From IMG/VR virus record IMGVR_UViG_3300028275_000007: a stretch of 64,000 bases of DNA. One strand, 5' to 3'. The stretch comes from a virus. Taxonomy: Duplodnaviria; Caudoviricetes. The notes below the pieces were generated by a model. The model did not search any database and had not been told where the DNA came from. It saw only the letters and a list, made by a program, of their open reading frames with translations. This document shows positions 14,482 to 56,917 of this stretch, piece by piece (position 1 is the first letter of the stretch; the number at the start of each line of letters is the position of its first letter). The position numbers and the translations under genes are program-made.

Positions 14482-14715
14482 TTAATCTTTATCTTTCAAT
14501 CTTTCCCACGAGGCATTAGCAGTATCTTGATTTTTCTTAGCATACTTAGGATCAGTGTCTGCTTGCTTAGAAGTCACTCTATCTACTGCTCGTTTATGAA
14601 CCTTTGCCAACTGTTTTTGACCTTTGTTAGTATCGCCGTATTCTTCTAAAGAGCCTTCCGCCACACCTTGCTGGGCGGTTTCTATTAAGTTAATGTAATC
14701 TCTAAGTGTTTTCAT
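14482..14715 (-). CDS. Small late protein with capsid-targeting-like N-terminus
   Basis: MKTLRDYINLIE...QGVAEG; TAAATA 8 nt upstream. Confidence 0.7.
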   Translation of the reverse strand: MKTLRDYINLIETAQQGVAEGSLEEYGDTNKGQKQLAKVHKRAVDRVTSKQADTDPKYAKKNQDTANASWERLKDKD

Positions 14716-14725
14716 AATGTAGTAT

Positions 14726-15412
14726 TTATTCCTTGTTCTTACAGTTATCGCCGTGCCAACGATTAAACATTCCGGAACTAACCGTTTTGCTACAATGCGG
14801 GCAGACTTTTTTGATTTGGCTTGGATGTGTTCCGTTAGCCAGTTGATTCTTTACAGATTTGCCGCCCAAAAAGTTATGGGTTCCTTCCGCTACTCGTTTC
14901 TCATTAGTTTGGCGAGAAACTGCTCCGCCCAAAAACGGATGTGTTCCGTTCTTGACTTTTTCTAACTCTTTTTTACGGGCCCAATCTTTATCCAAAAATG
15001 TATGGTTGCCTTCGGCTATTCGCTTTAAGTTTCTTTTACTTGCCTTTTCACTATCTTGCCAGTGATGATTGCCTGCTTCGACTAATCTGTCTTGTGCTTG
15101 CTTTTGTATCTTGCCACCAAGAAAGTTATGGGTTCCATTCTCAACTGCTTTGAGTGCTCCTAATCTTGATAGATTAGACTTCTCTTCTGGTGTAATATCT
15201 AGTGCTCCGGAAATCAACAAACAAGCATACCAGTCTCCTTGACTGTAGTGTATGTCGTAGTGTTCCTGGATAGTGACTGCTTTAAGATTTAGAGGATTAT
15301 TATTAGAGTGATCCCCATCGATGTGATGGATTTCAAAAGATCGTCCATCAGCATCAACGGGGATTTCACCGTAGTGCTGTTTGTATATTTTTCTATAAGA
15401 TCGGTCTCTCAT
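14726..15412 (-). CDS. HNH homing endonuclease with NGTHxFLGG repeats and C-terminal Zn finger
   Basis: EIHHIDGDHSNNNPLNL; about six GTH/GNH repeats; CPHC...WHGDNCK; TAAATA then ATG at 15412. Confidence 0.88.
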   Translation of the reverse strand: MRDRSYRKIYKQHYGEIPVDADGRSFEIHHIDGDHSNNNPLNLKAVTIQEHYDIHYSQGDWYACLLISGALDITPEEKSNLSRLGALKAVENGTHNFLGGKIQKQAQDRLVEAGNHHWQDSEKASKRNLKRIAEGNHTFLDKDWARKKELEKVKNGTHPFLGGAVSRQTNEKRVAEGTHNFLGGKSVKNQLANGTHPSQIKKVCPHCSKTVSSGMFNRWHGDNCKNKE

Positions 15413-15423
15413 AGAAATATTTA

Positions 15424-15930
15424 TCAACTATTCAGCACCTTTGCTACACTATTCATTACTGCCGCTATTCTGCCGATGTCTCTCAACTGCTCAACAGTAT
15501 AACCCATAGTTTTCAAACCATCGTAATGGGCTTTTACGCAAAACTCGCATTTGCCCACAATACTAGCAGCCAAACTAAATGCTTCAAAGTTTGCCTTGGT
15601 AGTTCCACCGTGGCTAGCAATCGCATTCATACGTAACTGAGCTGGCAATCCCTTTAGCTGTTCATCATCTGCCATTTCAACATATGGATACCATACATTG
15701 TTCTGTGCCATAATGCTTGCGGCTGTCATTGCTGCTTCGCCGTGTACTGGAGCATCTGCTAATAGAATACTTAGAACCTTGCCGTTGCCTGTTGCGGCTA
15801 ATGCAGCTACAGCACAACCTATTGCAATGTCCGGATCTAATGTACTGCGAAGTAGAACAGCATCTAGGTTTAGTTTTGTATCTTTAGCGTACTCTGGAAG
15901 TGCGCCTTTAATTGTTTCGTTGAAGTTCAT
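15424..15930 (-). CDS. ahpD: Alkylhydroperoxidase AhpD
   Basis: LPEYAKDTKLNL...MAQNNVWY...SIVGKCEFCVKAH (CxxC); downstream of ahpC. Confidence 0.92.
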   Translation of the reverse strand: MNFNETIKGALPEYAKDTKLNLDAVLLRSTLDPDIAIGCAVAALAATGNGKVLSILLADAPVHGEAAMTAASIMAQNNVWYPYVEMADDEQLKGLPAQLRMNAIASHGGTTKANFEAFSLAASIVGKCEFCVKAHYDGLKTMGYTVEQLRDIGRIAAVMNSVAKVLNS

Positions 15931-16337
15931 TTTGTTTTCTCCGCTAGTTCTTTATAACCTGCCCAACTAGGATGTATTGCATCAGCTTGCAATCGTTCTG
16001 TTTTAATAATTGTATCTCCCCAATTACGAGCAATAATTTCTACAATCTCGTTTACATCAGGTTTACAGAATTTATTATTACAGGGAGGAAGTATCCAATA
16101 TACACGATCTGCTTGTACTCGTTCTCTCATTGATTCTAATTCTTTAAAGGTATGCACACCTTTATGATCATTAGTACCAAGACTGATAATAACAGATTTT
16201 GCTGCTAGATTCTTATCCGCAAATTTACGATTCCATTGCCAAGTGTTATATCCGCCAATGCTGTAACTAATACATTCTTTACGAACATTGGCGGTACCCA
16301 CCGCAATACTATCTCCTAGTATTAGGCAGTCTAACAT
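15927..16337 (-). CDS. SGNH/GDSL hydrolase family protein
   Basis: ILGDSIA, SLGTND, DAIHP motifs. Confidence 0.8.
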   Translation of the reverse strand: MLDCLILGDSIAVGTANVRKECISYSIGGYNTWQWNRKFADKNLAAKSVIISLGTNDHKGVHTFKELESMRERVQADRVYWILPPCNNKFCKPDVNEIVEIIARNWGDTIIKTERLQADAIHPSWAGYKELAEKTK

Positions 16338-16870
16338 TACAATGTCTCGCCGCCAACTGTACGGTTGCAAGCGCACAATTCACCTGTTTGCAATGCATCC
16401 AATACACGAAGTGTTTCTTCTGGGCTACGGCCGACGTTCAAGTTGTTGACAGTAACGTGTTGGATAACGTTGTCTGGATCAACGATGAATGTTGCACGAA
16501 GTGCGGCACCTGCTGGAGCATAGAATACACCTAGTTGTTCAATCAAGCTCAACTCGCCACGCTGTGTGTCTGCAAACTGAGTGTGTGTGATCTTAGCAAG
16601 ATCGGGGTGAGCTTTTTGCCAAGCAAGTTTACAGAACTCGTTGTCTGTTGAACCTGTTAGTAGAACAGCATCACGATCCTTGAAATCACCTGCCAACTTA
16701 TCATAGGCAACGATTTCAGTTGGACATACGAATGTAAAGTCCTTTGGATAGTAAACGATTACTTTCCACTTGCCAGCGAAGCTTTCGTCTGTAATAGTAA
16801 AGAAATCATCCTTACCTGGATTAACACCTGTTACGGCAAACTTTTCAATTTTATCACCAACTGTTTTCAT
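16337..16870 (-). CDS. ahpC: Peroxiredoxin AhpC
   Basis: YPKDFTFVCPTEI, GRSPEETLRVLDALQTGELCAC. Confidence 0.95.
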   Translation of the reverse strand: MKTVGDKIEKFAVTGVNPGKDDFFTITDESFAGKWKVIVYYPKDFTFVCPTEIVAYDKLAGDFKDRDAVLLTGSTDNEFCKLAWQKAHPDLAKITHTQFADTQRGELSLIEQLGVFYAPAGAALRATFIVDPDNVIQHVTVNNLNVGRSPEETLRVLDALQTGELCACNRTVGGETL

Positions 16871-16974
16871 TTCATTCTCCTTGTGTGTGTTGAAAACTAT
16901 ATAGGACCCTTTGTCCTGTACAACTATTATACATTTAATTATCCTATTAATCTAGCATTTTAATAGGTTTTTTT

Positions 16975-17011
16975 ACAATATTTTTTAATAACGTTAATAG
17001 GAAAAATCAAT
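16975..17011 (-). promoter_or_regulatory. Possible OxyR-type operator upstream of ahpC
   Basis: ATTG-N7-CTAT-N7-ATTA-N7-TTGT versus consensus ATAG-N7-CTAT-N7-ATAG-N7-CTAT; AT-rich context lowers specificity. Confidence 0.4.
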
Positions 17012-29570: not shown

Positions 29571-29939
29571 TCAAGCCTGAGCGGCTAATTGTTTTGGAGC
29601 GGCAGATGCAGCCATTTTATCTACAGCATCTTGGCTTGTTTCTCCACCTTTTACAGGTGTTTCGGTATCTTGGTCTGTGCCAGGAACATTTAGATTAACG
29701 CCATCGGCATTAAAATCTCTTACTAATGCTTGGATAGCAGGAGTACTATCATACATTGATTTAAATGTTTCGTAATCAGAACCCATTTCAAATCCTGCAT
29801 CAGATGCTATTTTTTGAAGTGCTGCCCAGTTTAATTTAGCAGGTTGTCCTTTTGATGAAGCACGACCTATAAAGTTCTTTAAAATCATAACAAACTTGTC
29901 TACGCCTACATCATCACCGGCAAATTCAAAAAATCTCAT
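29571..29939 (-). CDS. Hypothetical late/head-associated protein
   Basis: MRFFEF N-terminus; in late operon. Confidence 0.7.
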   Translation of the reverse strand: MRFFEFAGDDVGVDKFVMILKNFIGRASSKGQPAKLNWAALQKIASDAGFEMGSDYETFKSMYDSTPAIQALVRDFNADGVNLNVPGTDQDTETPVKGGETSQDAVDKMAASAAPKQLAAQA

Positions 29940-30214
29940 TATACACCACCCGATGGAGAATTTAAACTAGATAACTGTTTTTGTAGATCTACTAATTCTT
30001 GTTGCTTTTGTTTGATAGCATCTTGAATTTGTTTTCTTTGATCAGCTAGTTGTTTTACTTGTTGTGCTTGAAGTTTAGCCTGTGCCTGAGGATCCTGTGC
30101 AGGAGTCATTGGCTGTGCGCCAGGCTGTCCAGCAGGCTGTTGTCCAAGCATAGGAGCATCGAGTTCAGCTAACCTGGACATTTCACGTTCACTAATGATG
30201 TTAAAAAGTTTCAT
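29939..30214 (-). CDS. Q-rich coiled-coil late protein
   Basis: MKLFNIISE; low-complexity QP/QA. Confidence 0.7.
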   Translation of the reverse strand: MKLFNIISEREMSRLAELDAPMLGQQPAGQPGAQPMTPAQDPQAQAKLQAQQVKQLADQRKQIQDAIKQKQQELVDLQKQLSSLNSPSGGV

Positions 30215-31713
30215 TAACCTGCTAATACTCTTAATAGACTGTTGCTACGATCAATGCTTTCACGCTGTTCACGTCCAGCTGCTTCTAATCCGCCAGCTGC
30301 TGCATCGCTTGCGCCAAACTCGTCGCCACCTGCTAGAGCATCTAGTCCACTTTCGTCTCCGCCTGTATTCATCATATCTGGCTCAGCAGGACCCATTTCG
30401 TCTCCAGCTCCCATATCTGCACCTGGCTCACCGCCTAGCATATCTGTTGGCTGCTCTCCACTGGCCAATGAACGAACACTGGTACTTAATGTATCGCGTG
30501 TGGATTTTAAGTTTTCCAATGCCTGCTGAATAGCCGGAGCACACTGGCTAATAAATGCCTTAGCCTGTTCTTGTCCCATTTCATCGCGGATAGAATCGCC
30601 TAGCTGTAGAAGTGTGTCGTTCTCCATGCCAGATAGTTCTTCGATCCAACGGCTAACTCTGTCGACCATAGTTTTTGCTGTAACGATAGCACTGGCCTGT
30701 TGTACTTCGCCTTCGTTTAGTTTAGTCATATCTTCTCCTGATTCTGTTGACTCGTTCTTTTCTTTGTTGTGTTGCTTCCAAGCGGTAGCATACGCAATGC
30801 TTTTTTCTTTATCGGTTAGTTTGCCATCTTTGGCATAACCTTTTTTAATATGTTTTACCATACGTTCTGCTTTGGCTCCTGGAGGTGCTTTTTCTGATAC
30901 AGTACCTTCACCAAAGTGTCTTTTATATGAATCCTGTCCGTCATCGTAGTGTTTTGCCGACGGTGATCCGGGATTGTATGGATTCTTTTTCTTTCCTTGA
31001 GAAGCATCTTTATATCCAGCATTGTGAGCTGCTTTAGTTTCCTCGTCAGCATCTTCTGCTTGATACTCTTCGTCGTAGCCAAAACTACCGTAGTCTTCAT
31101 CTGAACCGTGTCCTGCTGATGCTAGAGCATAAGCATCGTCTGTATCTCCACCCTCGTCTTCGTCACCGCCTTGAGCAAGTGCTTCAAATTCTGCTTGTAG
31201 GTCTTCAACATACGGTTCAATTCGTGGAACTTCGCCACCGTCTTGGTCACTGTATGCGTACCATACTTCTTCTGCTGCGCCTTCAAAGTCACCTTGTCTT
31301 AATAGTTCGACAATTTTTTTAGCGTCTAGATCTCCGTAAGCGCCAATTTCGTTGGCATTTTCGTCAAACCTTTTTAGAAGTTGCATAACTTCATCTTCTA
31401 AAGACCCAAATCCTTCATCTGTGCTAACTTCAGCAACGCTTGGATCAACAATAAACTCTGCACGTTCTGCAATTTCAGCATTGATAGCGTCTAACATCCA
31501 CTGAGCTTGTGCTACTGCTTCATTTTCAATATTTTCATTAAATCCGCTGCCTGAACGAACTTGACTTAATTGTGTACGTAGCTTATTACGAGCATCTTCC
31601 AACTTTGGTACATCAAAACTAGCAAAATCTAGCTTTGTACCGAATAATTTTTCCATCGATTCATTGATCTTTTTAGATGATCTATTTGATTTAAAAAGGT
31701 CTGTAGTTTTCAT
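30214..31713 (-). CDS. Acidic modular late protein, probable prohead core/scaffold-like
   Basis: D/E-rich, many hydrophobic-x-E sites, basic inserted modules; TAAATA upstream. Confidence 0.6.
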   Translation of the reverse strand: MKTTDLFKSNRSSKKINESMEKLFGTKLDFASFDVPKLEDARNKLRTQLSQVRSGSGFNENIENEAVAQAQWMLDAINAEIAERAEFIVDPSVAEVSTDEGFGSLEDEVMQLLKRFDENANEIGAYGDLDAKKIVELLRQGDFEGAAEEVWYAYSDQDGGEVPRIEPYVEDLQAEFEALAQGGDEDEGGDTDDAYALASAGHGSDEDYGSFGYDEEYQAEDADEETKAAHNAGYKDASQGKKKNPYNPGSPSAKHYDDGQDSYKRHFGEGTVSEKAPPGAKAERMVKHIKKGYAKDGKLTDKEKSIAYATAWKQHNKEKNESTESGEDMTKLNEGEVQQASAIVTAKTMVDRVSRWIEELSGMENDTLLQLGDSIRDEMGQEQAKAFISQCAPAIQQALENLKSTRDTLSTSVRSLASGEQPTDMLGGEPGADMGAGDEMGPAEPDMMNTGGDESGLDALAGGDEFGASDAAAGGLEAAGREQRESIDRSNSLLRVLAG

Positions 31714-31741
31714 AAATTAAGGGTCCAGATTGATACTATAT

Positions 31742-32170
31742 TTATTCATTTCTTATTAAACTCTCTGCTTGGGTTTTGCAGACCATTGTACGATCTCTGC
31801 TTTCAACATATCTTGCCCATAGCATATCAGCCCTATCAAAGTCCTTATTACTTACTGCTCTTTGATATTGAGCCCTGAGTATTTGGCTATCAGTGAACCA
31901 ACGTCCATATTCTTGATCCGCTCTATATAATGCATCGGCAAGTATATTACTCTGACGAAGTGCTAATAGGTTAGCAATTTTAATAGCAATAGAATTTAAA
32001 TGTATTTCATTATATAATAATTCGTTGTTCTTGTAAAGAGATTTAATTGGTCCATCACTGACTATCAAAATTTCGCCTACAAGAATACCACGCTCTGTGC
32101 GAACAGGAATGATATTTTTGGATAGTTCTTTCTTAACTATCTGCTCTAGGCGTCGAGAAAGTTGAGTCAT
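31742..32170 (-). CDS. Hypothetical protein
   Basis: 142-aa ORF. Confidence 0.7.
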   Translation of the reverse strand: MTQLSRRLEQIVKKELSKNIIPVRTERGILVGEILIVSDGPIKSLYKNNELLYNEIHLNSIAIKIANLLALRQSNILADALYRADQEYGRWFTDSQILRAQYQRAVSNKDFDRADMLWARYVESRDRTMVCKTQAESLIRNE

Positions 32171-33867: not shown

Positions 33868-35235
33868 TTAATCGGCTCTAAATGGGGTCCAACGATCACG
33901 TGGAACTAGCTTAACACCGTGTCCTGTGTGCATATAACCCTCACCGCCTGGTTTTCCGCCAGTGTGTGCAGTAATATCGCCTTCGGCAGCATCTAGTTCA
34001 CGAATAATTTCGTCTTTGGCTTTCATTAATTCGCGCACTAAATGAAACATATTATCCATTACACCTGCGTTGGCCTTGTTTAATTCAGCAATCTTAGCCT
34101 GTTTTGGAGCACTGACTTTGCTGCCCTGTAGCCACTGAAAGAAACTGTTTGTGTCTATTTTATCTAAGGCTTTGGCCTTTGACTGATTGTTTACAAAGGT
34201 ATAGATGATTGTCTGTAGATCGCTTAGGCCTGCAACAGGTGCTAATAGTTGATCAATTTTAGGGCCAACTTGGTTGGCTAATTTTTCAATTACACCTAGA
34301 TTGTCTGCATTTACCGCAGGTTGATGTGCTACATAGGTTTGTCCAAACACTACAAGTTCTGGACTGACATTAAGAGCCTTAACATCTGTTAGATCATCTC
34401 CAGTCTTGTCACCAAAATAATCTAAATGTTTGTGAGCAGCAATAGCTACCTTAGCCTTACCCAATCTTACGCCAACTGGACTTGTTGCTCTAACTGAATA
34501 TGTAGTTTGATTAGGGGTAAAATTAATTTTACCATTACCACTGTCATAAGGTTTTCCAGGATGGAACAAGATATCACCATAGATATAACCTCTAAAATCT
34601 TTGGGAGTTCCCTTTTCAAAGATAGGCCATAGGCTAGCCATATCACCAGCAAATTTCTCACGCCAGTCTTCTCCTTTGCCGCGACTTAGGATAAACTGCT
34701 TGAGCTCTTCTGGGTTAGAACTCTTACCTTCTTCACGACCCCAGTTATTTTTACCTACCATACGGAAGGTACCATCTTCGTCTCTGCCCCAATAGACAGT
34801 TGGATTACCGTCCCACTTGATAGAAACATCTTTAGCATCAGATGCTAGACTTTTTAAAACTTCAACAGCACGTTTGGCACCACCGTGTTCTGTAAACACT
34901 AGATCTTCTAGGTGATTAAACTCACGACCTACTTTCTTAGGTACAGGTGCTTCGGCTTCTGTTACAGTTTCTTTATAAGGTTCCCACTTGGCACACCAAT
35001 AAGCAGGTTTGACCACAGGCTCACCTTTGAACTTGTCACACTTCTTAGTTTTACTATCATAGTAGCCGCAATTGCTACATTTTTGTTGCGCAGGCACTCC
35101 CGGATTTGACGCTGGCTGATACCTATCGGGTAAGCTGTCAGGAATATCACTGCCGTCAGGATATCTATTACTACGCTTGTAGCTCATAGCCTGTTTACCA
35201 GGTTTTGATTCTATCAAAAACTCAAAAGCTCTCAT
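33868..35235 (-). CDS. ATP-dependent ligase/capping-like nucleotidyltransferase (DUF6267-like) with N-terminal HiPIP-like 4-Cys domain
   Basis: SIKWDGNP (motif I KxDG), YIYGDILF, EGYM..GVKLV; N-terminal CSNC...C...YWC. Confidence 0.65.
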   Translation of the reverse strand: MRAFEFLIESKPGKQAMSYKRSNRYPDGSDIPDSLPDRYQPASNPGVPAQQKCSNCGYYDSKTKKCDKFKGEPVVKPAYWCAKWEPYKETVTEAEAPVPKKVGREFNHLEDLVFTEHGGAKRAVEVLKSLASDAKDVSIKWDGNPTVYWGRDEDGTFRMVGKNNWGREEGKSSNPEELKQFILSRGKGEDWREKFAGDMASLWPIFEKGTPKDFRGYIYGDILFHPGKPYDSGNGKINFTPNQTTYSVRATSPVGVRLGKAKVAIAAHKHLDYFGDKTGDDLTDVKALNVSPELVVFGQTYVAHQPAVNADNLGVIEKLANQVGPKIDQLLAPVAGLSDLQTIIYTFVNNQSKAKALDKIDTNSFFQWLQGSKVSAPKQAKIAELNKANAGVMDNMFHLVRELMKAKDEIIRELDAAEGDITAHTGGKPGGEGYMHTGHGVKLVPRDRWTPFRAD

Positions 35236-35432
35236 TTACTTTTTCCTGACTTCATATTAGCACACCAATGATACATTTTAGCCTTTTCACCACTTGCATT
35301 TTTTGCACGTTTGCGTAGATCTGTCACTGATCCAGAACAGCTAGCACCAGAACGTTTGACACGACCGGGGCGGCTCTTTCCCTTTACCTTTCCATCGGCA
35401 AAATTTTCAATGACAAACTCACTGGCTCTCAT
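35232..35432 (-). CDS. Small basic Cys-containing late protein
   Basis: MRASEFVIE then K/R-rich ...ASCSGS...HWCANMKSGK. Confidence 0.7.
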   Translation of the reverse strand: MRASEFVIENFADGKVKGKSRPGRVKRSGASCSGSVTDLRKRAKNASGEKAKMYHWCANMKSGKSK

Positions 35433-36265
35433 TAGCAGTTCCAACGACGGCGTGCCTTACAGATTGCCTTGTCTGGTGTCTTGGCACAGCTGATGCTGTG
35501 CATTTTCATTTGTCCACGTGAACGAGAACAGTAGCTCTTACGGCGCTTGCTGGCCTTGCTACCTTTTTTAAGTTTGCTTGGCTTTGTGGTTACCGCAGTC
35601 TTTAACTTACTACCTGGATTTTCTCTACGATAGGCCTTTACAGCCTTACGGCTCATACCGTCTGTTTTGTCTTTCTTATTAACCTTTTGCCAATCTTCGT
35701 TTAGTTGAGAAGTAACAGCAAATACATATAGCTCGTCATCTGTTAAGGATTCTAGATCTTCCCAAACTACTTCTGGGTCTACACCGTTGCTTTCTGCAAT
35801 GTCTTCAATGATTGATTCAATAAGATCAAAGTCTTGTTCTAGTTCTAGACTTTCAGGAGTGTGGCTCATTTCGTGCTCGCTCTCTAGATAATCCCAAACT
35901 GTCTGCATATAATCTTCAGCAATGGATAATTTTTCCTGTACCCATTCTGGGAGGTTCTCTCCGTCTTTGATTAACTTAGATAAACCTACTGCGGCTCTAT
36001 GAATAGTGTGTAGGCTGTTTTGAGCCATTCCGGATTCATCATTATATTCTGCATCATCAAATGCTTCATTCTTAGGTTTCTTACCTTGCTTTTTCATATT
36101 AACTGCGATTGCAGCCTGTTGAGCAGGATTAGCAGCCTCTGGCACACAGTTAGGCACAGTCTTGCCGCCCTTCTTCTTTGTACCTACTGGATGATATCCT
36201 TTCCAGCAAGGGTTACTGTTCTTAAGAGTTTTTTTAGATTCTATTAGAATGTCGGTTATTCTCAT
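35432..36265 (-). CDS. Modular late protein (basic Cys modules separated by acidic linkers)
   Basis: MRITDILIE; CWKGY..KTVPNCVP, ANPAQQAAIA, C-terminal RRKSYCSRS..KARRRWNC. Confidence 0.7.
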   Translation of the reverse strand: MRITDILIESKKTLKNSNPCWKGYHPVGTKKKGGKTVPNCVPEAANPAQQAAIAVNMKKQGKKPKNEAFDDAEYNDESGMAQNSLHTIHRAAVGLSKLIKDGENLPEWVQEKLSIAEDYMQTVWDYLESEHEMSHTPESLELEQDFDLIESIIEDIAESNGVDPEVVWEDLESLTDDELYVFAVTSQLNEDWQKVNKKDKTDGMSRKAVKAYRRENPGSKLKTAVTTKPSKLKKGSKASKRRKSYCSRSRGQMKMHSISCAKTPDKAICKARRRWNC

Positions 36266-37074
36266 TTTACCATATCCATAATTTTGCGCATCCAACTTGG
36301 ACTGTTAGGTGTGTAGTGCTCTAATGATTCTTTCTGTGGAAGTTCAATTCCTGAACGCCCTAGTGTTTCACGAGCAGCACTGACTAATTCGTCATAGTTA
36401 GGTAATTTTTTAATGTAATTAATGATAGCATCAACGGAACGAATATCTTTAACTGTTGCGGTTTGACCTAACAACTGTTTAGCAATAGTATTCCAATCAT
36501 CTCCACCTTTAACAGGTTCATTTGTTTCTGGATCAACTAGACCAAACTTAGGACTATATTTCATTCCTCTTGCACGAGCAATAGAACTTAGAACAATATG
36601 GCGATGCTCTCCTCGATACTGTCCCTGCCCACCAATCATACTTCCTTGCTGGAACTTAGGATTGTTAGAGAACATAAAGTCTGCTTGTACAAATCCGTTG
36701 GCTTCGTCACCTTTAATTGGTGTCTTTAAGTGTACAGAATCGCCACTTAATTTTACGCTGTCTTTGCCAAATTGTTGTGCTAGTTTTGTAGCAAATTCTT
36801 TCTTGTCTACTTCGTTAGCGTCAACTGATAAATCTAAATCTCCAGAACTGTTTAATTCAAAAGTTCCGTCTGGATGCTCTTTACGTCCAGTTGTACCTAG
36901 CCATTTTACAGGTTTTTTATCGTGAGGATCTAATTCTTTGGTGAAGTCTAGTCCTGTTACTTTTTCGATAAAAGCAATAGTGGCTGGAACATCTCCCGTA
37001 GCAATACGCTGCGTTAAAGGTTGTTTGTCTGGGCCTTTGAATACGTTTCCGCCCTCAAATAATTTATTCGTCAT
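36262..37074 (-). CDS. Pol-beta-superfamily nucleotidyltransferase-like protein
   Basis: LGTTG...SGDLDLSVD (hG[ST]..DxD) and later VQADFM. Confidence 0.65.
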   Translation of the reverse strand: MTNKLFEGGNVFKGPDKQPLTQRIATGDVPATIAFIEKVTGLDFTKELDPHDKKPVKWLGTTGRKEHPDGTFELNSSGDLDLSVDANEVDKKEFATKLAQQFGKDSVKLSGDSVHLKTPIKGDEANGFVQADFMFSNNPKFQQGSMIGGQGQYRGEHRHIVLSSIARARGMKYSPKFGLVDPETNEPVKGGDDWNTIAKQLLGQTATVKDIRSVDAIINYIKKLPNYDELVSAARETLGRSGIELPQKESLEHYTPNSPSWMRKIMDMVK

Positions 37075-37345
37075 TTGAATCTAATGGTTTATTAACTTTG
37101 CGTGATTCTGCTATTTTACGAATACCGCGTGTAAACTTTGCTGCATCTTGTCCACGGATAGCATTAATTAAGCGGCGCTCTAGCTCATCAGCTTGTTCTG
37201 GCGTATAGTTCTTATGAATACTTTCCAAAAGATTAATAGCTGAATTAATAATGTTAACGGCGCGACTTTCAAACAGCGAGTCCTTGTTACGGACTTCTGC
37301 TATTTCGTTCAATTCTTGCAGGATTGACCTAGTTCTTAATTTCAT
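37064..37345 (-). CDS. Conserved hypothetical late protein
   Basis: MKLRTRSILQEL...; TAAATA upstream. Confidence 0.7.
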   Translation of the reverse strand: MKLRTRSILQELNEIAEVRNKDSLFESRAVNIINSAINLLESIHKNYTPEQADELERRLINAIRGQDAAKFTRGIRKIAESRKVNKPLDSNDE

Positions 37346-37504
37346 AATCAACTCGTTTATAATATATTTAACTCAAATTAAATCATATTGTAAATTAAAA
37401 AAACAATAAAGTCAAAGCCGTAAATGTGCAGATGCAGCATATCCCAACTAAATACTCAGTAGAAACCATTAGTTTTTACAGACACTTACAGAGGATATCA
37501 CACA

Positions 37505-39772: not shown

Positions 39773-40981
39773 TTAGTGGAACTGATCTGCCTCTGTGCTG
39801 GACTTATTAGCAACTGTTGATGTAGCACCAACTGCTTCACTAATCAAATCAAAGTAACCAACGCCAACTTCACGTTGATGTTTAACTGTTGTAAAGCCAC
39901 GAGCCTGTGCTTCAAACTCACGCTGTTGCATTTCTGAATACCCAGCCATACCACGTTGTTTATAGGCTTCTGCTAATTCAAATGTAGCAAGGTTAACTGA
40001 ATGGAATCCTGCTAGTGTAATGAACTGAAACTTATAGCCTAACGCACCTAATTCACGTTGGAATGTTTCACATTCTTCAATGCTTAAAAACTTTTGCCAA
40101 TTAAAACTAGGACTGCAATTATAAGCAAGCATTTGATCAGGATACTGGGCACGGATCGCTTCAGCAAACTTTCTAGCCTGTGCGATATCAGGTGTGCTAG
40201 TTTCGAACCAAAGGAGATCAGCGTAAGGGGCATAAGCAAGACCTCTGCTAATACAAGCATCAAGCCCGTTTTTAAATTTGTAAAAGCCTTCGTCAGTGCG
40301 TTCATCAATAATAAAGTCCTTGTCCAATGGATCGTGATTGCTGGTAATAAGTGTAGCAGACTCTGCGTCGGTACGTGCCATAATAACTGTTTCTACTCCT
40401 GCTACATCGCTAGCAAGACGTGCGGCCTGTAGGTTACGAATAGCTTGGCTAGTGGGAATTAAAACCTTACCGCCTAAGTGTCCACATTTCTTTTCGCTAG
40501 ATAGTTGATCTTCAAAGTGTACGCCTGCGGCGCCTGCTTCGATCATAGCCATCATAAGTTCATATGCGTTTAATGCGCCACCAAAACCTGCTTCTGCGTC
40601 AGCTACAATTGGCAAGAAATAATCTGTTGTTAAATTGCCTTCACTGTGTTCGATTTGATCGGCACGACGGAACGCATTATTGATTTGCTTAACGATTGTG
40701 GGCACTGAATTTACTGGATATAAACTTTGATCAGGATATGTTTGTCCTGCTGTATTTGCGGCTGCGGCCACTTGCCAGCCTGATAGATAAATTGCTTTGA
40801 GTCCTGCTTTGGCGTGTTGTACGGCTTGTTGGCCGCTGTACGCTCCTAGCGTGTTAACGTATGGTTCTGTTGCTAGTAACTCACGTAGTTTGGTTGCACC
40901 ACGTTTGGCTAAAGTATGCTCAATTTGTAATGAGCCTTGTAACTTGCGGACTGTGTCTTGTGTGTAGTTGCGCTTCTTCAT
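39773..40981 (-). CDS. aceA: Isocitrate lyase
   Basis: [35 protein letters not shown]. Confidence 0.96.
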
Positions 40982-42394: not shown

Positions 42395-43516
42395 TTAATT
42401 GCCTTCGCGATCTCTTTCGACTCTAAGTTGTTCTCTATGAATACTTGGATGTCTTTCAATAACTCTACGAATAGCATCTTCTTCGCTTTCTGCTTCAATA
42501 CGAGCTGTTCGTCCATTTTGAAGAAGTGTAACTATAAACATTCCGGGACCTTCTTCAGCTGGCTCATCTTCTTTCTTCTCTGGTTCAGATGCATATGAAT
42601 ATGGCAATCTAGATTTAATGTCTGCAATTGCTTTATCAATGTCGTAACCGTCTGGAGTTATATCTTTAGAATTCTGCTTGATTTCTTCTGCTTTAGATTT
42701 CATAGCAGCGATAATTTCTTTAAGCAATCCGGGGAATAGTTCAGCAAACTTTTCATCTCCACGGCTATAACTCAACGATTGATTACCGTTGTTCATCTGT
42801 CCTGTTGGGGCGTGCATCTGCCACTTACCGTTTACATCGTCTTGATTTTGTTTATCAACAATACTAACGATAGGACCTTCTGGAGCATAGCGTTCAAACC
42901 AACGTAGACCTGAACTAGATCCTGTACAGAAACTTGCCTGATAACCTTCGGAGTTATTGAATGTATAACAAGCACCGTAGTTGTAAGGTAATGTTACTAG
43001 GAAACGATCATTGTTGATCAATATAGATTCTTTCTTTTCACGCTTATGTTTCTCAATAACTTCAGCATCTTTAATCTTACGTAATTCGTCTCGGTATTCT
43101 CTAGTCTGTACAATTGCTTGAATCTGGCGTAGATTTTTAAAACGATTAAAATCCTGATGCGGCTCTTTGAGCTTACCGCGTATACTTAGAGCTTTCCAAG
43201 CACCTAGGGCATCCCCACCTTCACCGTTGATATCCTCATAGTCTACTACACCGTTCATATAAAGACGTGTCAACCAATCGTCAAACTTACCGTCTTGTGA
43301 AAGGTCGCCGTAGTCTGTTGAACGAAGTGATGTATCTAATAGTTCACTCCATAGTTGTAAAATTGCTTGATCGTCTGGTTTAGGACCTAACTTAGCAACC
43401 TTATCTTTTGGTAATGTGCTGTCGTGACGCATTGCAATTCCAAGCATCTTAACAGTCTTTGGATCTTTTAATTTTGCCGCAATGTTGGCTTCTAATACGA
43501 TTTGATCTAGTTTCAT
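42395..43516 (-). CDS. Late protein of unknown function with capsid-targeting-like N-terminus
   Basis: MKLDQIVLEA; 373 aa. Confidence 0.7.
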   Translation of the reverse strand: MKLDQIVLEANIAAKLKDPKTVKMLGIAMRHDSTLPKDKVAKLGPKPDDQAILQLWSELLDTSLRSTDYGDLSQDGKFDDWLTRLYMNGVVDYEDINGEGGDALGAWKALSIRGKLKEPHQDFNRFKNLRQIQAIVQTREYRDELRKIKDAEVIEKHKREKKESILINNDRFLVTLPYNYGACYTFNNSEGYQASFCTGSSSGLRWFERYAPEGPIVSIVDKQNQDDVNGKWQMHAPTGQMNNGNQSLSYSRGDEKFAELFPGLLKEIIAAMKSKAEEIKQNSKDITPDGYDIDKAIADIKSRLPYSYASEPEKKEDEPAEEGPGMFIVTLLQNGRTARIEAESEEDAIRRVIERHPSIHREQLRVERDREGN

Positions 43517-44388
43517 CCTGTTATCAAAGCCCTTTTAAAGAATGAAAGAACTGCTCCAAGCTTCTTTTGATCTCCACCGGCAATGTCTTTTAATAATTGT
43601 TGTGTGCCTTCTGAACGTTGGGCACTAAATCTACTACCATAACTTTTTGTTATACTACCAGTCTGTTCTGGATAATAATGACTTGCGGCCATTAACACCG
43701 AAACGTTAATAGCATTAGTAACAAACTCTGGCGTAACATCTTCGCCTGCTTCTAATGCTTCTAATCCGCTTTGCAGTTTACTTACGTGATTAAGTTTCTT
43801 TTGTGCTTTTTCAAACGCATCGTTCTTGATCATATTGGCCACGTGACCTTTAACGTCTGCTATGGCCGCTGTGGTAGCACGAATCCACATTGGGCGAAAT
43901 TTTTTAACTAGAGTTTCTTGTGTAACTTCTTGTGTGCCGCCGGCGCCTTGTTGTGCATCTGCACGTTTGCGCTGTTTATCAGTGACTGCTCTAGTGTTCT
44001 TGCCCACATAAAACTTTTGTAGCTTACCAATTTTTGATTTTAAGAAATCTAGAATATTTCCGCCACGACCGTCTGATGTAGTGTCAATCGGGCCACCGCT
44101 ACTGGCAACTGCATCATAGGTACCGTTACGTCCGGATTTAATAGCTCCGGTACCCTTGGCTCCTTGTATAATAACCCAGGCACCTTCATAGGCATTTTTT
44201 AAATCGCTCCAAGATATTTTATCTACTGGACGATATCCAATATCGTGTGCAAGTTTTAGGTCTTTGTGTAGAGCCTGAACTACTTCTTTACCGCCAGGCT
44301 GTCCGGCAATAAGATTCATAGAAGTACTAGCTTCGTCTAAGTGTCCTTCTAAAAGTTGGGCAAATATTTGGTAAGATTCTGGTCGCAT
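43513..44388 (-). CDS. Late protein of unknown function
   Basis: TAAATA 5 nt before ATG 44388; ...LLEGHLDEAS. Confidence 0.7.
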   Translation of the reverse strand: MRPESYQIFAQLLEGHLDEASTSMNLIAGQPGGKEVVQALHKDLKLAHDIGYRPVDKISWSDLKNAYEGAWVIIQGAKGTGAIKSGRNGTYDAVASSGGPIDTTSDGRGGNILDFLKSKIGKLQKFYVGKNTRAVTDKQRKRADAQQGAGGTQEVTQETLVKKFRPMWIRATTAAIADVKGHVANMIKNDAFEKAQKKLNHVSKLQSGLEALEAGEDVTPEFVTNAINVSVLMAASHYYPEQTGSITKSYGSRFSAQRSEGTQQLLKDIAGGDQKKLGAVLSFFKRALITG

Positions 44389-44395
44389 AATATAT

Positions 44396-45196
44396 TTATT
44401 TGCATTTAGCTCGTTTTGCATTAGTCAAAGCACCAAAATCTACGGGCCATTCTTGCCCTGGTGCCAGCTCTTTGGCAGTACCTGGAAAACCAAATACAAC
44501 ATTTGCTTCTGCTTGAATATCGCGTATAGCAGTTCTAAATTTAGTTAGGTCGTTGCCTAGGTTGCCGTAGGGAGCACCGTGTGGAAATCTCCAACCTGCC
44601 ACAGCGCCTGTTTGTTGATCAACAACGATCTTATAGTAAGCGTGTGGAACTATAACTCCGTTACCGATGTATTTGTCACCAGCGCCATATATAGCCCCAA
44701 CGTATACGGTAAACGGGCGGTTCTGTTGAAAGGCCCACCCACGCACGGAAGTTTCCAGTAACTTCCAAATCCCACGATTTAGGCTCCCGTGTTGGGGATA
44801 CATATTCGTCATCAAAAAACTTTCGTACTCTACTTGTTGACTCCAGCTCATATCCCCGTCCGGTGCTGCATGGCCCTTGTCGTAGCCAGTCCCAGCATAG
44901 TCCGACGGGGTCGCTCCGTTTGGGACTGATTTGTCCGCAACAAAAGCATCTGTTCTAGGAAAACAACCTAGAGCATTTTGTGGCAATAATGTGTAGCTTA
45001 CATAAGCAGGAATCTTAACAGGAGCATCATAGCCTACTAGATATGCTTCTCTGCAAATAGGCTGTATCTGACGTACAGTCTGTGCCCATCCATAGGGGCT
45101 GTGTACTTTGCAGGCATCAACTGGTAGTGGAGCACGTTGTTCCCAAGCAAATGCCTGAGAAGTAAAAAGTGCTAATATAATTAAAAATTTATTCAT
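44396..45196 (-). CDS. Secreted DNA/RNA non-specific endonuclease (NucA/EndoG family)
   Basis: Signal MNKFLIILALFTSQAFA; YDKGHAAP, SFLMTNMYPQ...LNRGIW..LE. Confidence 0.9.
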   Translation of the reverse strand: MNKFLIILALFTSQAFAWEQRAPLPVDACKVHSPYGWAQTVRQIQPICREAYLVGYDAPVKIPAYVSYTLLPQNALGCFPRTDAFVADKSVPNGATPSDYAGTGYDKGHAAPDGDMSWSQQVEYESFLMTNMYPQHGSLNRGIWKLLETSVRGWAFQQNRPFTVYVGAIYGAGDKYIGNGVIVPHAYYKIVVDQQTGAVAGWRFPHGAPYGNLGNDLTKFRTAIRDIQAEANVVFGFPGTAKELAPGQEWPVDFGALTNAKRAKCK

Positions 45197-45224
45197 TACG
45201 GTTATCCTAAAATTAACTGTGTAT

Positions 45225-45869
45225 TTATTTCCAGGATACCATCTTAAATCTTTCTTCAGGAATACCAAAATAATCGCATTTCCAACGGCTTTGAGCAAAA
45301 AAATCTAAATGATGCCATTGTTCCTTGAGATTTAATATTTGTTTTCCTGCATCAAGCCAGTCAATGGACAACAATATAGGTTCTACGGTTTTGCGAATGC
45401 TTTCTATTTCTTCGTAGTTAAAACTATCCCATTCCCAGTGTAATATTTCAAAAACATTACCTTTAGTATCAACCCAGTCCATACTAAAATCTAATCCCCA
45501 CTTAGGGCGAAGAGATATAATTTTATAAATTAATGGCAATGATTTGGCCCAATTTTGTAGCTCTTCAAGGGCCTCTCCTGTATAGCCTTTACGTTCAAAC
45601 AACAAACTATGATTAAGTACAGGGCCCACAATAGTAGGCTCTTGTACAAACCAATCTTGTTTCAAAGCACGTATATGTTCTCTGTGCTTCTTTGGTTTAG
45701 CGTAATTACCGTAGGCAAAATGTTGTTCTAGTACAGTAAGATCGTAGCCGTTTTGATCAAACAATGCTACATCTTCTGCTGTGGGTAAAAACAATATCTT
45801 AGCAATAGGTTGATCCCAATAACCGTTTGGATCAAACTTGTTATCAGTTATAACCACGTTTGTGTTCAT
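45225..45869 (-). CDS. Conserved hypothetical protein
   Basis: W-rich 214-aa ORF. Confidence 0.7.
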   Translation of the reverse strand: MNTNVVITDNKFDPNGYWDQPIAKILFLPTAEDVALFDQNGYDLTVLEQHFAYGNYAKPKKHREHIRALKQDWFVQEPTIVGPVLNHSLLFERKGYTGEALEELQNWAKSLPLIYKIISLRPKWGLDFSMDWVDTKGNVFEILHWEWDSFNYEEIESIRKTVEPILLSIDWLDAGKQILNLKEQWHHLDFFAQSRWKCDYFGIPEERFKMVSWK

Positions 45870-46002: not shown

Positions 46003-47334
46003 TTAATAAATCTCTCGCCATTGAAAGCCAACTCCAACATTTGTACTTTGTGCTCCGAGATTAGTTGCCACTACTACATATATCTCGCTGTCGGAACTAT
46101 CATAGTTTTGTATAATATAATTCTTTTTGGCTGAACTAGGGATGTTTGCTGCCGGTGCTCCGCCAGCCTTTTGACTTCCTTGTGTGCTGGCTCCAACAAA
46201 TCCGTTATCAAGTTCATCGCCGTCTGTAAATGCTGTACAGGTAGCGTTGTATTGTACACCACTGTCATCATCAACATCGACCCAAGTTGAACCTGTTAAC
46301 TGTGATTGAGCTGGTAATTTAATTAAACGCCATTTAATATTCTCGCCGTCGCTGAATACATTTATATTACCTGCGCGAACTATCATACGGTTAGCATAGG
46401 TTTTAAAGGTTGTCTTTAGTCTAATGGCTAAGACTGGCAATGTAGCCCCTGAAGCTAATGCTCTTAGGCTAGGACTACTCACAGCCCAATCGGTACCTGC
46501 TTCTACATAGCCGCCTTCTGATGCCACAGTAGAGCAAATCTGATCAAAGTACGCACCTGTGGTAGTGCCTGTGTTTACAATCTCACAGCGTACAGGCAAG
46601 TTTGGTGTACTCATATAAACTGTGGTTAAACTATTTGAATGATGAAATTGATGACAGGGAATAAAGGCACCTTCGTGTACAAATCCTACAGTAACTGATC
46701 CTACACCTAGCCATTGGAATTCTATAAATGATAGTTGTGTCTTAGTAATATCTATATCAAATGTACTTCCGCCTGTTCCGTCACATTTATCAATATTCCA
46801 CTCTGATTGTGTCTTACGATTTTCTACAGGTGCGCCAGATGTGTATGTTCTTATTACCCAACTTAGTGTACCGTCTCCTGCTTGTTCAAAGTATATACCA
46901 TTGTTGTCATCAAAGTAACCTGTGCGTTTTGTAACATTAGTAGTAGCCGCATAGAAGTTAAAACTTGAAAGTATCTGCTGACTTTTGCCTGGCATATAGT
47001 GATGATAGAACTTAGTCTGATGAACAACACGACTAGCAGAGTTGCTGGTAGTTGTTAGTCTAGCACAGGCTTTGTTTGATTGAAATTCTACAGTTCCACC
47101 GTTCACTGTGTAGTCAATGAAGTTAGGATCTAGTCCGTATAAGTGTTTGTAGTCTCCTAGAGTAAATGGCTCGCTCATACGTATGCGGCCGAACGCATCT
47201 GTCTGTCCTACTTTGTTAGTGGTTCTTAGTGTAGGCTGTCCTAACTGATTGTACTCCATAACCAAGTGAAGATCAGCAAGGTTAGGTTCCCAAGGATGTT
47301 CGTAGTTAGTGCTATTAGGATTTAAGATCGGCAT
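46003..47334 (-). CDS. Virion structural protein (beta-rich)
   Basis: 443 aa, T/G/S/N-rich, in late cluster. Confidence 0.6.
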   Translation of the reverse strand: MPILNPNSTNYEHPWEPNLADLHLVMEYNQLGQPTLRTTNKVGQTDAFGRIRMSEPFTLGDYKHLYGLDPNFIDYTVNGGTVEFQSNKACARLTTTSNSASRVVHQTKFYHHYMPGKSQQILSSFNFYAATTNVTKRTGYFDDNNGIYFEQAGDGTLSWVIRTYTSGAPVENRKTQSEWNIDKCDGTGGSTFDIDITKTQLSFIEFQWLGVGSVTVGFVHEGAFIPCHQFHHSNSLTTVYMSTPNLPVRCEIVNTGTTTGAYFDQICSTVASEGGYVEAGTDWAVSSPSLRALASGATLPVLAIRLKTTFKTYANRMIVRAGNINVFSDGENIKWRLIKLPAQSQLTGSTWVDVDDDSGVQYNATCTAFTDGDELDNGFVGASTQGSQKAGGAPAANIPSSAKKNYIIQNYDSSDSEIYVVVATNLGAQSTNVGVGFQWREIY

Positions 47335-51767: not shown

Positions 51768-52128
51768 TCTGGCTGTCTCCGGGGATAATTCTATAGTTAT
51801 CCTCTACGCTGTCTGCTGTACTCACTTCAAAGATCATAGAGTTAGGTTGAAGAGCAATTAGTTGATGCGGCATCATTGGAGGATTATGCCAGGTTTCGCC
51901 TTCGTTAAGAATCTTTTCAACGTAGGTTGCCGTTTTTGTATCGCAGTAAACTAACCTAAACTTGCCTGCGTTAACAAACCAAGTTTCTTCTTTTTCTTTG
52001 TGAAAGTGCATACTAAACTTTGCACCTTCACGTTCGAATACCATAATCTTTCCGCAGTATTTGTCGTTGGTGGCCCAAATAATTTCGTAGCCCCAACCCT
52101 TGTCTACTTTACCTGTTAATCTTGTCAT
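51742..52128 (-). CDS. Cupin (sugar-phosphate isomerase-like)
   Basis: [28 protein letters not shown]. Confidence 0.85.
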
Positions 52129-52715
52129 GGTCGCTTCTCAATAACTTTATCGATAAGTCCGTACTCTAGAGCTTCTTCTGCACTCATAAACTTATCACGA
52201 TCCATATCGCGTTCGAAGTCTTGGTAGGTCTTACCTTTGGTGTTGTGCTTAACATATAGTTCTGTTAAACGTTTCTTAATATGCATAATTTCTTTGTATG
52301 AAATCTCAATGTCAGATGCCATACCTCTCGCACCACCCGATGGTTGATGGATCATATGACGAGCATTTGGCAGCATAAAACGTTTGCCTGCTGCTCCTGC
52401 ATTGGCAAGGAACGAGCCCATTGAACAGGCCTGTCCCATTACATAGGTTGCTACATCGCATTTAATAAATTGCATAGTATCATAAATGCTTAGGCCTGCT
52501 GTGACTACACCGCCTGGACTATTAATAAACAAATTGATATCTTTATTTGGATCTTCTGATTCTAAAAACAATAACTGAGATACAATCAAATTAGCCATAT
52601 GGTCTTCTACAGGACCGTTTAGCATAATAATACGCTCGCGAAGCAAACGACTGTAAATGTCATAGGCTCGTTCGCCTTTGGATGTAGACTCAATAACTAC
52701 TGGTACCAAACTCAT
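52125..52715 (-). CDS. clpP: ATP-dependent Clp protease proteolytic subunit
   Basis: [19 protein letters not shown]-like, QACSMGS, MIHQP, DRD. Confidence 0.96.
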
Positions 52716-55117: not shown

Positions 55118-55118
55118 T

Positions 55119-55358: not shown

Positions 55359-55359
55359 T

Positions 55360-55626
55360 ATGAAAGAATTCTTTGGATGGATACGTTGGGTTTGGAACAA
55401 GCAGGAGACCTGGCAAAAGACCTTTCTTGTGGCCTTTTTCTTCCTGGGGGCTGGTATCAATGCCAGCGCCGAAGCTCAGAAGTATCTTTGGAGCATCAGC
55501 TCGATTATAATTGCATTTTGGCTGACCAAATGGTGCCTATGGGACGCATTTTGGGCATCGTGGGCTAAGTATAGAGAACATCGCAACGAACTATTAACAA
55601 CTATCAAGACATCGGACAAGGAGTGA
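55360..55626 (+). CDS. Small membrane protein
   Basis: Two hydrophobic W-rich segments. Confidence 0.7.
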   Translation: MKEFFGWIRWVWNKQETWQKTFLVAFFFLGAGINASAEAQKYLWSISSIIIAFWLTKWCLWDAFWASWAKYREHRNELLTTIKTSDKE

Positions 55627-55628
55627 TT

Positions 55629-55898
55629 ATGATTGAAAACGAATTTGAATATAACAACGAAGAAGAAGCAGAAGTTGCACAGATCAACTCTCTGATTATG
55701 AATATGAACGCTGTGGGTGCTCTACAGCGAGAACTGGCCAAACAGCGCAGCCAACCTTCAGCTGAGTTCTGCGAAGAATGTGGGGAAGATATTCCTGAAG
55801 CACGTAGGCAAGCGATTCCGGGTGTGCAGTTCTGTATTCACTGCCAGACTAAAATGGAACGCTTCAAAGCCAACTATCGACAGCCTGGTGCGAACTAA
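55629..55898 (+). CDS. DksA/TraR C4 zinc-finger protein
   Basis: CEECGEDIPEARRQAIPGVQFCIHCQ. Confidence 0.9.
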   Translation: MIENEFEYNNEEEAEVAQINSLIMNMNAVGALQRELAKQRSQPSAEFCEECGEDIPEARRQAIPGVQFCIHCQTKMERFKANYRQPGAN

Positions 55899-56427
55899 GG
55901 GTAATCACGTTACCCCATAGGTCCTCACAGCTTTGATCAAACAGCCATTCTGGGCCTAGATTCTGAGCCACTAGCCAGCTGTGTTTCTGACTCCAAGGCC
56001 CCTGCCCATTCATTTCTAATTCCAGCTGACCCGGGGCCCAGCTGGCAAAACCCATAATCATTCTAAAGTGTCTAGGGAAGTCACCGTCGGCCAAGTGATG
56101 AAACATTGCTTCATTGCTGGTCATAGCCCAGGCCGAAGTTATCATAACAGATCCCGAAATCACCCACTCTGCTGAATGCAGCATCCATAGGCTCTGAGGG
56201 CTCATAGGGCCACCCCAGTGTAGGGGTAAATTGGGTAGGCCCCCAACGTCTAGGTCTATGCCGTCTGCTATGTCGTTGAGAGTTTGGTCTAGGGGTCTAT
56301 TAACACAGAGCGCAAATGAGCCCTGGGGGTTAGTATGTGTGACCATTAATACTGAGTTCCGGAATCTGGTGTCCGGCATTGTTGGGGGTGCTATGAGTAG
56401 GTCAGTTGGACGTACCCTGGTAGACAT
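55864..56427 (-). CDS. YqgE/AlgH family protein
   Basis: LLIAPP.MPD.RF..SV, WGGP, GFASWAPGQLE.E. Confidence 0.88.
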   Translation of the reverse strand: MSTRVRPTDLLIAPPTMPDTRFRNSVLMVTHTNPQGSFALCVNRPLDQTLNDIADGIDLDVGGLPNLPLHWGGPMSPQSLWMLHSAEWVISGSVMITSAWAMTSNEAMFHHLADGDFPRHFRMIMGFASWAPGQLELEMNGQGPWSQKHSWLVAQNLGPEWLFDQSCEDLWGNVITLSSHQAVDSWL

Positions 56428-56428
56428 A

Positions 56429-56917
56429 TCAACTCCAGTCTGGGAGCGGACCCCCGTACTTTTTACCCAAGATCTTCTTGCCGCGGACCTTGACACGCTC
56501 TGAGCCAATCTTGTGGCTCTTGCCCCCTTCGCGACTGCGATAGCCCTGTGACTTACAGCTGGCTAGGTTTGATGCACCCAGGGCTGAGTCTGGCTTACCT
56601 GATGTGCAGAGTGCTCTGGACGCGGGTTCTTCCGCGACGGCTTCATCATCACTCTGGACGCCATACATGATCTCATCGTTTAGAGGAAAGTCCAATTCCA
56701 TAAAACGCTCGGGTAGTTCTGAAGTATCGATGATGTAGTCTAGCTCATCATCTGTAGGGTGTTCTTTCATTAGGACCTTGGCAGCTTCATCGTGACCCTT
56801 GGCATTGTTCCAAATGTTGATGCCATAGTGGTTGTCATAGAGTGCGGCCACAGCGTCCATGACCTTGTGATAGTCACAGGTAAAGATATTTTCTTTAAGT
56901 ATTTCGTTGATTCTCAT
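56429..56917 (-). CDS. Late protein with capsid-targeting-like N-terminus and basic Cys-containing tail
   Basis: MRINEILKE; acidic middle; CTSGK..SCKSQGYRSR. Confidence 0.7.
   Translation of the reverse strand: MRINEILKENIFTCDYHKVMDAVAALYDNHYGINIWNNAKGHDEAAKVLMKEHPTDDELDYIIDTSELPERFMELDFPLNDEIMYGVQSDDEAVAEEPASRALCTSGKPDSALGASNLASCKSQGYRSREGGKSHKIGSERVKVRGKKILGKKYGGPLPDWS

Follow-up and report, generated by a model that had tools for sequence, protein, structure and literature searches.

Bacteriophage T4 carries on its internal proteins a capsid-targeting sequence (CTS), MKTYQEFIAE, which is cut once by the protease gp21 and is enough to package foreign proteins (PMC8442874, PMC9026906, PMC3012670). 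Of the residues of this sequence, 4 and 7 are important for targeting and 8 and 10 for processing, and gp21 follows the cleavage rule L/I-x-E (PMC9026906). In the T4 record, gp24 starts MAKINELLRE, gp21 MNEPQLLIE and gp22 MLKEQLIAE, and gp23 has FLTE followed by AE at residue 65. The T-even internal proteins for which a target is known, Ip1, Ip2 and Ip3, inhibit type IV restriction enzymes (PMC12373910), and in the phiKZ-like giants (201phi2-1, phiKZ, SPN3US) a diverged protease of the gp21 type cleaves many head proteins behind a Glu (PMC5694885, PMC9026906). We found no open-access paper on CTS-like tags in cyanophages or T4-like jumbo phages, subscription journals lying outside the search. 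Here we describe a short N-terminal leader shared by otherwise unrelated proteins in IMG/VR virus record IMGVR_UViG_3300028275_000007 (Duplodnaviria; Caudoviricetes), the 64,000 nt of which we call the window, and compare it with these systems.

A preliminary description of the window had listed nine N-termini with a common pattern and likened them to the T4 CTS, whose sequence and removal by gp21 it gave in agreement with the literature (PMC8442874, PMC9026906). All nine N-termini are present at the minus-strand starts where they had been placed. Run on the six-frame translation of the whole window, the strict pattern M[KR]..[DEQN][ILFVMY]..E gave exactly six matches (30214, 35235, 35432, 36265, 43516 and 56917), all on the minus strand, all at the first ATG of an open reading frame (ORF; 66 to 455 aa) and none internal. 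Mononucleotide shuffles of the window gave a mean of 0.52 six-frame matches (maximum 3 in 200 shuffles), and when residues were shuffled inside each protein 0.06 N-terminal matches were expected (maximum 2 in 2000 shuffles), so the motif search bears out the claim of a common N-terminal motif. The pattern stands at 6 of 105 gene starts, whereas none of the 379 internal Met positions has it (Fisher p = 9e-5), and the starts agree with those of public gene calls on identical contigs, which give products of 270, 277, 66, 455 and 162 aa. Exact copies of window proteins are present in the JGI samples 3300024496, 3300028103 and 3300026478. The motif holds for seven of the nine listed N-termini, while MRFFEF lacks the Glu and MTNKLFE is doubtful; the window has at least seven, and probably about ten, unrelated leader-bearing genes. 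Two broader searches were dropped for counting: a loose regular expression (M[KR], hydrophobic-x-E by residue 13) matches equally many genes in a control phage, and a bare hydrophobic-x-E by residue 13 occurs in 15-20% of genes in every genome.

The same pattern recurs in related contigs. Relatives of the tagged 455-aa protein number 225 in IMG/VR, and 80 loci (974 kb) were fetched, in which the strict pattern has 124 matches; 119 coincide with the first ATG of an ORF no shorter than 50 aa. Longer relatives were reached by walking along related contigs from the end of G002; the walk first gave ordinary ~200-kb T4-like phages, which served as controls, and then jumbo contigs, the closest of the long relatives being G010 (280 kb), which is collinear with the window over its full length, the nucleotide identity being 65-77%. 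The complete 222-kb T4-like phage G005, which has a gp21 protease, and 91 kb of cyanophage S-RIM32 each gave just one match, internal in both, and the nine-residue form is therefore specific to the lineage of the window. The instances at gene starts, those of the window and of its relatives together, fall into seven clusters with no BLAST link between them, their similarity being limited to the leader. Among 74 distinct 27-nt leader sequences the codons are diverse while the residue classes are kept, which argues that selection acts on the peptide and not on the RNA. Constraint is also seen at positions left open by the pattern: 98% of leaders have A/L/F/I at position 3 and ~95% have L/V/I/A/M at position 7, and in 66 distinct leaders position 7, three residues before the mature start (P3), is L/V/I in 81%, with Val commoner than the T4 rule states. 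Position 10 of the leader-bearing proteins is mostly A/N/D/S. The resulting consensus is M-R/K-(A/L/F/I)-x-(E/Q/D/N)-(I/F/L/V)-(L/V/I)-x-E, usually nine residues long with variants of 8, 10, 12, 14 and 18, and the commonest leader in the lineage is MRAFEFLTE followed by AE.

A cut-site signature can be read in the family of the 373-aa protein, which has 1078 database homologues. When 119 of the 120 homologues listed were anchored on a conserved KDP motif, their leaders measured 9 residues in 112, 14 in six and 18 in one. In every one of the 119, Glu directly precedes the conserved mature start AN[VI]AAK (position P1) and P3 is V, I or L, whereas nine different residues occur at P2, which is free. 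Judged from this alignment, the signature is the short L/I-x-E rule of T4 gp21, kept even in lengthened leaders. In an AlphaFold2 model of the 373-aa protein (mean predicted local distance difference test score, pLDDT, 81.8) residues 1-10 are unstructured and lie off the fold with pLDDT < 50. A fold search with the model gave no PDB match at E <= 0.001, and its AlphaFold DB matches were all to uncharacterised clusters; the sequence had no match in Pfam, PHROGs or PDB sequences, and the ESM Atlas gave unnamed viral clusters and a weak PcfJ lead only.

Set against the T4 CTS, the window leaders share the extreme N-terminal position, a length of ~10 residues, a Met-Lys/Arg start, an aromatic/hydrophobic middle and a hydrophobic-x-Glu end, and they are likewise the sole common part of unrelated proteins in a lineage that has a gp21-family protease. 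Aligned with a one-residue gap, the key residues of the T4 CTS land on conserved aromatic/hydrophobic and Glu positions of MRAFEFLxE. The window leader differs in being usually one residue shorter (consensus MRAFEFLxE) and in lacking Glu in some members, and its carriers, which in T4 are small basic proteins, reach 455 aa and include one enzyme-like protein. The likeness extends to T4 propeptides, since gp24 MAKINELLRE and MRINEILKE of the 162-aa protein match nearly residue for residue and the gp23 maturation site FLTE/AE equals the lineage consensus of FLTE then AE, but T4 propeptides sit on shell and core proteins to which the tagged proteins of the window are not homologous. The phiKZ-like giants resemble the window in cutting after Glu, whereas their sites are S/A-x-E and their propeptides long and mutually dissimilar, in place of one short common leader ending V/I/L-x-E. 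As at the T-even ip loci (PMC12373910), the genes are variable, clustered and unrelated, have only the leader in common and differ in set between related phages. The mature products span the basic 66-aa peptide (isoelectric point, pI, 10.7) to acidic proteins of 160-480 aa. Only the 66-aa protein fits the description of an Ip as small, basic and DNA-associated, and the other mature leader-bearing proteins have pI 4.3 to 9.6 and 65 to 446 aa, which suggests a set that would act like Ip cargo but lies outside the Ip protein families.

Tags of this type are also found in other T4-like phages. A ~106-aa protein of marine cyanomyoviruses (135 phage records) starts MKSYNEFISE in S-RIM8 and MKTFKQFMSE in S-SCSM1, where its gene is flanked by virion-protein genes a short way upstream of terL. 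Three ORFs of G005 and one each of G010 and G014 also carry near-canonical T4 tags.

Orthologues of the window's own leader-bearing proteins (Table 1) keep the pattern to different degrees. The 82 orthologues of the 455-aa protein begin MRA[FWY]E[FLI]L.E; those of the 66-aa peptide start MRIAEIMSE and have the mature start NFADGK in common; those of the 162-aa protein start MKIKDIITE and MKIREIVTE; and in those of the 91-aa protein the sequence changes while the pattern stays (MRFSDLVHE, MRLHNFVTE, MKFDQLFSE). The 12-residue variant on the 77-aa protein corresponds to MKTLREYINLIE at the start of its G010 homologue. Two weaker candidates came to light through this comparison of orthologues: orthologues of the ~291-aa protein begin at the same internal Met (for example MRQESYKIFAQLLE and MRPETLRLFAQFCE), and the N-terminus of the 93-aa protein is kept in 79 orthologues. 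MRFFEF is invariant in 49 orthologues of the 122-aa protein while positions 7-10 vary, position 9 being usually Asp or another non-Glu residue and Glu in one contig only; because Asp at the last T4 CTS position blocks processing and allows targeting (PMC9026906), this protein may be targeted yet left uncut. Residues 313-488 of the 499-aa protein match a PHROG 'virion structural protein' family (phrog_14154, E = 1e-10). The doubtful 270-aa protein has no Pfam or PHROG match, and its orthologues have variable N-termini of 5-9 residues that end hydrophobic-hydrophobic-Glu and are followed by GGN[VI]FK. Apart from the DUF6267 protein, the leader-bearing proteins belong to no recognisable family. 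The carriers are unrelated, as the preliminary description had it, but its large set of enzymes was an overstatement, as only the DUF6267 protein looks enzymatic.

That 455-aa DUF6267 protein gives the clearest view of how a leader may be acquired. In S-RIM32 the DUF6267 homologue is surrounded by replication genes and has no tag at its start, and the KWDG motif, typical of ligase-type nucleotidyltransferases, is common to the G010 and S-RIM32 proteins. In a pairwise alignment residue 20 of the G010 orthologue stands opposite residue 8 of the S-RIM32 homologue, and the leader is therefore part of a 12-residue N-terminal extension; on this comparison of sequences, it appears to be an add-on. 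Between leader and DUF6267 domain the window protein also has a four-Cys segment (residues ~40-85) with a weak HiPIP likeness (E = 9e-4 for Pfam HIPIP, which is below the cut-off, and E = 0.06-0.4 for HiPIP chains in the PDB). In the 365-aa G010 orthologue the homologous region begins at residue 20, which leaves no room for such an insert.

A gp21-family protease gene (Peptidase_S77, PF03420, above the Pfam cut-off) is present in five jumbo contigs of 195-383 kb, including G010. There it lies in a T4-type head block consisting of a portal (phrog_213), an acidic core-like protein, the protease (PF03420/phrog_207; 42% identity to S-RIM32 gp21), a scaffold-like protein and the major head protein (phrog_138; 30% identity to gp23). 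In the alignment of the G010 capsid protein YLSE or YLAE stands directly before the conserved mature region, near the place of FLTE-AE in T4 gp23. Upstream of the portal gene, at a distance of 4-10 kb, three genes in a row start MRIENLLE, MRINEILTE and MRIRDLNDG. No gp21 or gp23 was found in G001-G003, the first three long relatives, and since these contigs end short of the head module the absence is uninformative. Two other features of G010 were recorded. Between the portal and the acidic core-like protein, where T4 has no such gene, a 215-aa gene (182235-182882, minus strand; L286:2235-2882) has a weak sialyltransferase-like match (phrog_4603, E = 2e-4). About 400 nt left of the stretch that aligns with the window start, a 364-aa ORF (10445, minus strand) has MRKYEFIAE 18 codons past the upstream stop, with a further in-frame Met upstream; EFIAE is also the end of the T4 CTS.

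The leader genes all belong to operons, and a TAAATA-type box precedes every operon with a leader gene (Table 1). The sequence NATAAATA occurs in 13 copies on the minus strand vs 2 on the plus strand, usually 6-37 nt before an ATG, and the starts behind these boxes often lack a Shine-Dalgarno sequence. A AATAAATA box also ends 7 nt upstream of the ATG of the 77-aa gene. From their sequence, the boxes before the leader operons fit predicted late expression. The operon that holds the 373-aa and ~291-aa leader-bearing proteins is headed by a gene (44396-45196, minus strand) for a non-specific DNA/RNA endonuclease (PF01223, E = 1e-34) with a signal-peptide-like start, MNKFLIILALFTSQAFA.

Table 1. 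Leader-bearing genes, candidates, late-promoter-like boxes and host-like genes of the window, with the tagged protein of two cyanophages
Feature	Coordinates	Strand	Remark
455-aa cargo candidate, leader MRAFEFLIE; HiPIP-like Cys segment, DUF6267 domain with KWDG motif	33868..35235	-	strict
66-aa basic peptide, mature pI 10.7, leader MRASEFVIE	35232..35432	-	strict
277-aa Cys-rich protein, C-terminal DUF6321 domain, leader MRITDILIE	35432..36265	-	strict
373-aa protein, leader MKLDQIVLE	42395..43516	-	strict
91-aa protein, leader MKLFNIISE	29939..30214	-	strict
162-aa protein, leader MRINEILKE	56429..56917	-	strict
77-aa protein, 12-residue leader variant MKTLRDYINLIE	14482..14715	-	variant kept in G010
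122-aa protein starting MRFFEFAGDD, first half of leader, no Glu at position 9	29571..29939	-	
~291-aa candidate, leader-like N-terminus MRPESYQIFAQLLE at internal Met (44388) of ORF 43513-44421	43513..44388	-	weaker than strict set
93-aa protein, first gene of operon, start MKLRTRSILQELNE, L-x-E at residues 9-11 and 12-14	37064..37345	-	weaker candidate
499-aa acidic protein starting MKTTDLFK, first half of leader; first hydrophobic-x-Glu INE at residues 16-18	30214..31713	-	
270-aa protein starting MTNKLFE	36262..37074	-	doubtful member
Late-promoter-like box GTTAAATA	37365..37372	-	before operon 37345 down to 33868
Late-promoter-like box AATAAATA	31739..31746	-	before operon 31713 down to 29571
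Late-promoter-like box AATAAATA	45222..45229	-	before operon 45196 down to 42395
Late-promoter-like box GGTAAATA	57767..57774	-	before operon 57759 down to 55864
Full Hsp70/DnaK	1745-3637	-	
GMP reductase/IMPDH-family protein	4336-5355	-	
AhpC-type peroxiredoxin	16337-16870	-	
Isocitrate lyase, PF00463, E = 5e-101	39773-40981	-	
Full ClpP, PF00574, E = 8e-82	52125-52715	-	
~106-aa tagged cyanomyovirus protein	S-RIM8 L310:1501-1827; S-SCSM1 L309:1501-1821		

The motif is thus real, strictly N-terminal, borne by unrelated proteins, selected at the protein level and equipped with an invariant cut-site signature. We think it fairly likely that the leader is this lineage's counterpart of the T4 capsid-targeting sequence and prohead-protease propeptide, read by a gp21-family protease, because it is confined to the N-termini of unrelated proteins, its hydrophobic-x-Glu end is kept, the protease is encoded in relatives and late-promoter-like boxes precede the genes. 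By analogy with T4, the leader-bearing proteins are probably packed into the virus particle. They would be made late in infection, the leader would bind them to the scaffolding core during prohead assembly, the gp21-family protease would cut after the final Glu at the [V/I/L]-x-E site, and the mature protein would stay in the head and probably enter the host with the DNA. Several points weigh against this reading. The packaging and the cleavage of the tagged proteins are argued by analogy with T4, and the gp21-family protease is known from relatives of the window. The starts MRFFEFAGDD and MKTTDLFK have no Glu and are therefore not processable at that site. TAAATA boxes also precede nucleotide-metabolism genes such as ribonucleotide reductase and are therefore not specific to head proteins. 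The Lys or Arg at position 2 may stem in part from start-stop overlaps of the form ATGA, in which the first base of codon 2 has to be A. In S-SCSM1, finally, the tagged 106-aa protein is annotated 'hypothetical' while both of its neighbours are annotated 'virion protein'.

The main rival to packaged and ejected cargo is that the leader is a propeptide or core-assembly tag, cut by the head protease, on scaffold or core proteins that are degraded or retained. T4 gp21, gp22, gp24, gp67 and gp68 have short N-termini ending L/I-x-E and are not injected effectors (PMC9026906), several of the tagged proteins are acidic (pI 4.3-5.6) like core proteins, and the three leader-like genes of G010 adjoin its head module. 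We nevertheless hold this account to be unlikely, as the tagged set has a basic 66-aa peptide similar to T4 internal proteins, the tagged DUF6267 protein with its KxDG motif has leaderless cyanophage homologues among replication genes, and the cargo genes are scattered and vary between relatives as T-even ip loci do.

The other accounts that we considered fit the data poorly. It is highly improbable that the leader is a degron read by the phage ClpP together with an unfoldase of the host, or that it sorts its carriers to another site in the cell: the window does encode a full ClpP, and the Met, basic and hydrophobic residues at the start of the leader presumably recall, if loosely, N-terminal ClpX recognition motifs, but an invariant V/I/L-x-Glu exactly at the mature-domain boundary is the signature of gp21 and no feature of a degron, the hydrophobic core or twin-arginine motif of export signals is missing, and the match with the T4 CTS and the gp24 propeptide is close. 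We give just as little credence to a legacy of recombination, in which the leader would be a shared junction for the shuffling of gene cassettes with no present function. The leader genes are clustered and translationally coupled, and a CTS-coding stretch flanks the hypervariable ip genes in T-even phages (Repoila 1994, as cited in PMC12373910); against this, the nucleotides differ widely while the residue pattern is kept, and length variants still end V/I/L-x-E, which therefore indicates selection on the peptide and not on the DNA. That the first codons are limited by a translation-start signal in the mRNA, for coupled or leaderless initiation, is more improbable still. Most leader genes lack a Shine-Dalgarno sequence and overlap the preceding stop codon, and their second codon is strongly AGA or AAA, but positions 3-9 use many synonymous and non-synonymous codons with the residue class kept, many other coupled genes in the window do without the motif, and the same class of peptide is a proven protein-level signal in T4.

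As to the phage itself, the 443-aa protein of the window (46003-47334) shares 50% of its residues with a virion structural protein from S-RIM32, a T4-like cyanophage, and matches 180 other cyanomyovirus records as well, while megablast found no close or near-identical DNA record for the window among deposited phages. Related IMG/VR contigs of 100-163 kb have a CheckV completeness of 28-46%, which implies a genome of ~355 kb. Taken together, this virion protein, the lack of close deposited DNA and the implied genome size mark the window as part of a freshwater jumbo phage, uncultured and belonging to the T4 superfamily; no link was found between this phage and the 'moraphage' jumbo lineage, which reaches 307 kb (PMC12619734). 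The minus strand carries nearly all genes between ~500 and 57,800, and GC content climbs from ~0.40 to ~0.48 past ~55.8 kb, where small plus-strand (early-type) genes start. The window also has an unusually rich set of metabolic and chaperone genes, the host-like ones being those for Hsp70, GMP reductase/IMPDH, AhpC, ribonucleotide reductase, isocitrate lyase and ClpP.

The window is a further instance of the known T4 targeting/propeptide system, here in an uncultured phage that belongs to the T4 superfamily as a distant member, with a leader set that is larger and more varied than that of T4. Since tags are near-identical in coliphage T4, marine cyanophages and the window phage, the targeting mechanism may be ancient across the superfamily, and since the enzyme-like DUF6267 protein is tagged while its cyanophage homologues are tagless, ordinary phage genes could be recruited as cargo by ~10 residues. 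It is conceivable, though we would not call it likely, that one portable nine-residue tag pre-loads the head with a large, fast-changing set of proteins that includes real enzymes, perhaps with Glu-less versions left uncut; a ligase-like DUF6267 nucleotidyltransferase with an iron-sulfur-like module may be an example of such an enzyme. The injected protein dose would then be far more diverse than T4's three internal proteins and Alt, and metagenomes could be searched for the tag to obtain the injected proteome directly. The tag could perhaps also serve for loading foreign proteins into T4-like phages other than coliphages. If it works as in T4, the proteins injected by an uncultured phage could be listed from sequence, and proteins co-injected with the DNA are prime candidates for anti-defence and host-takeover functions.

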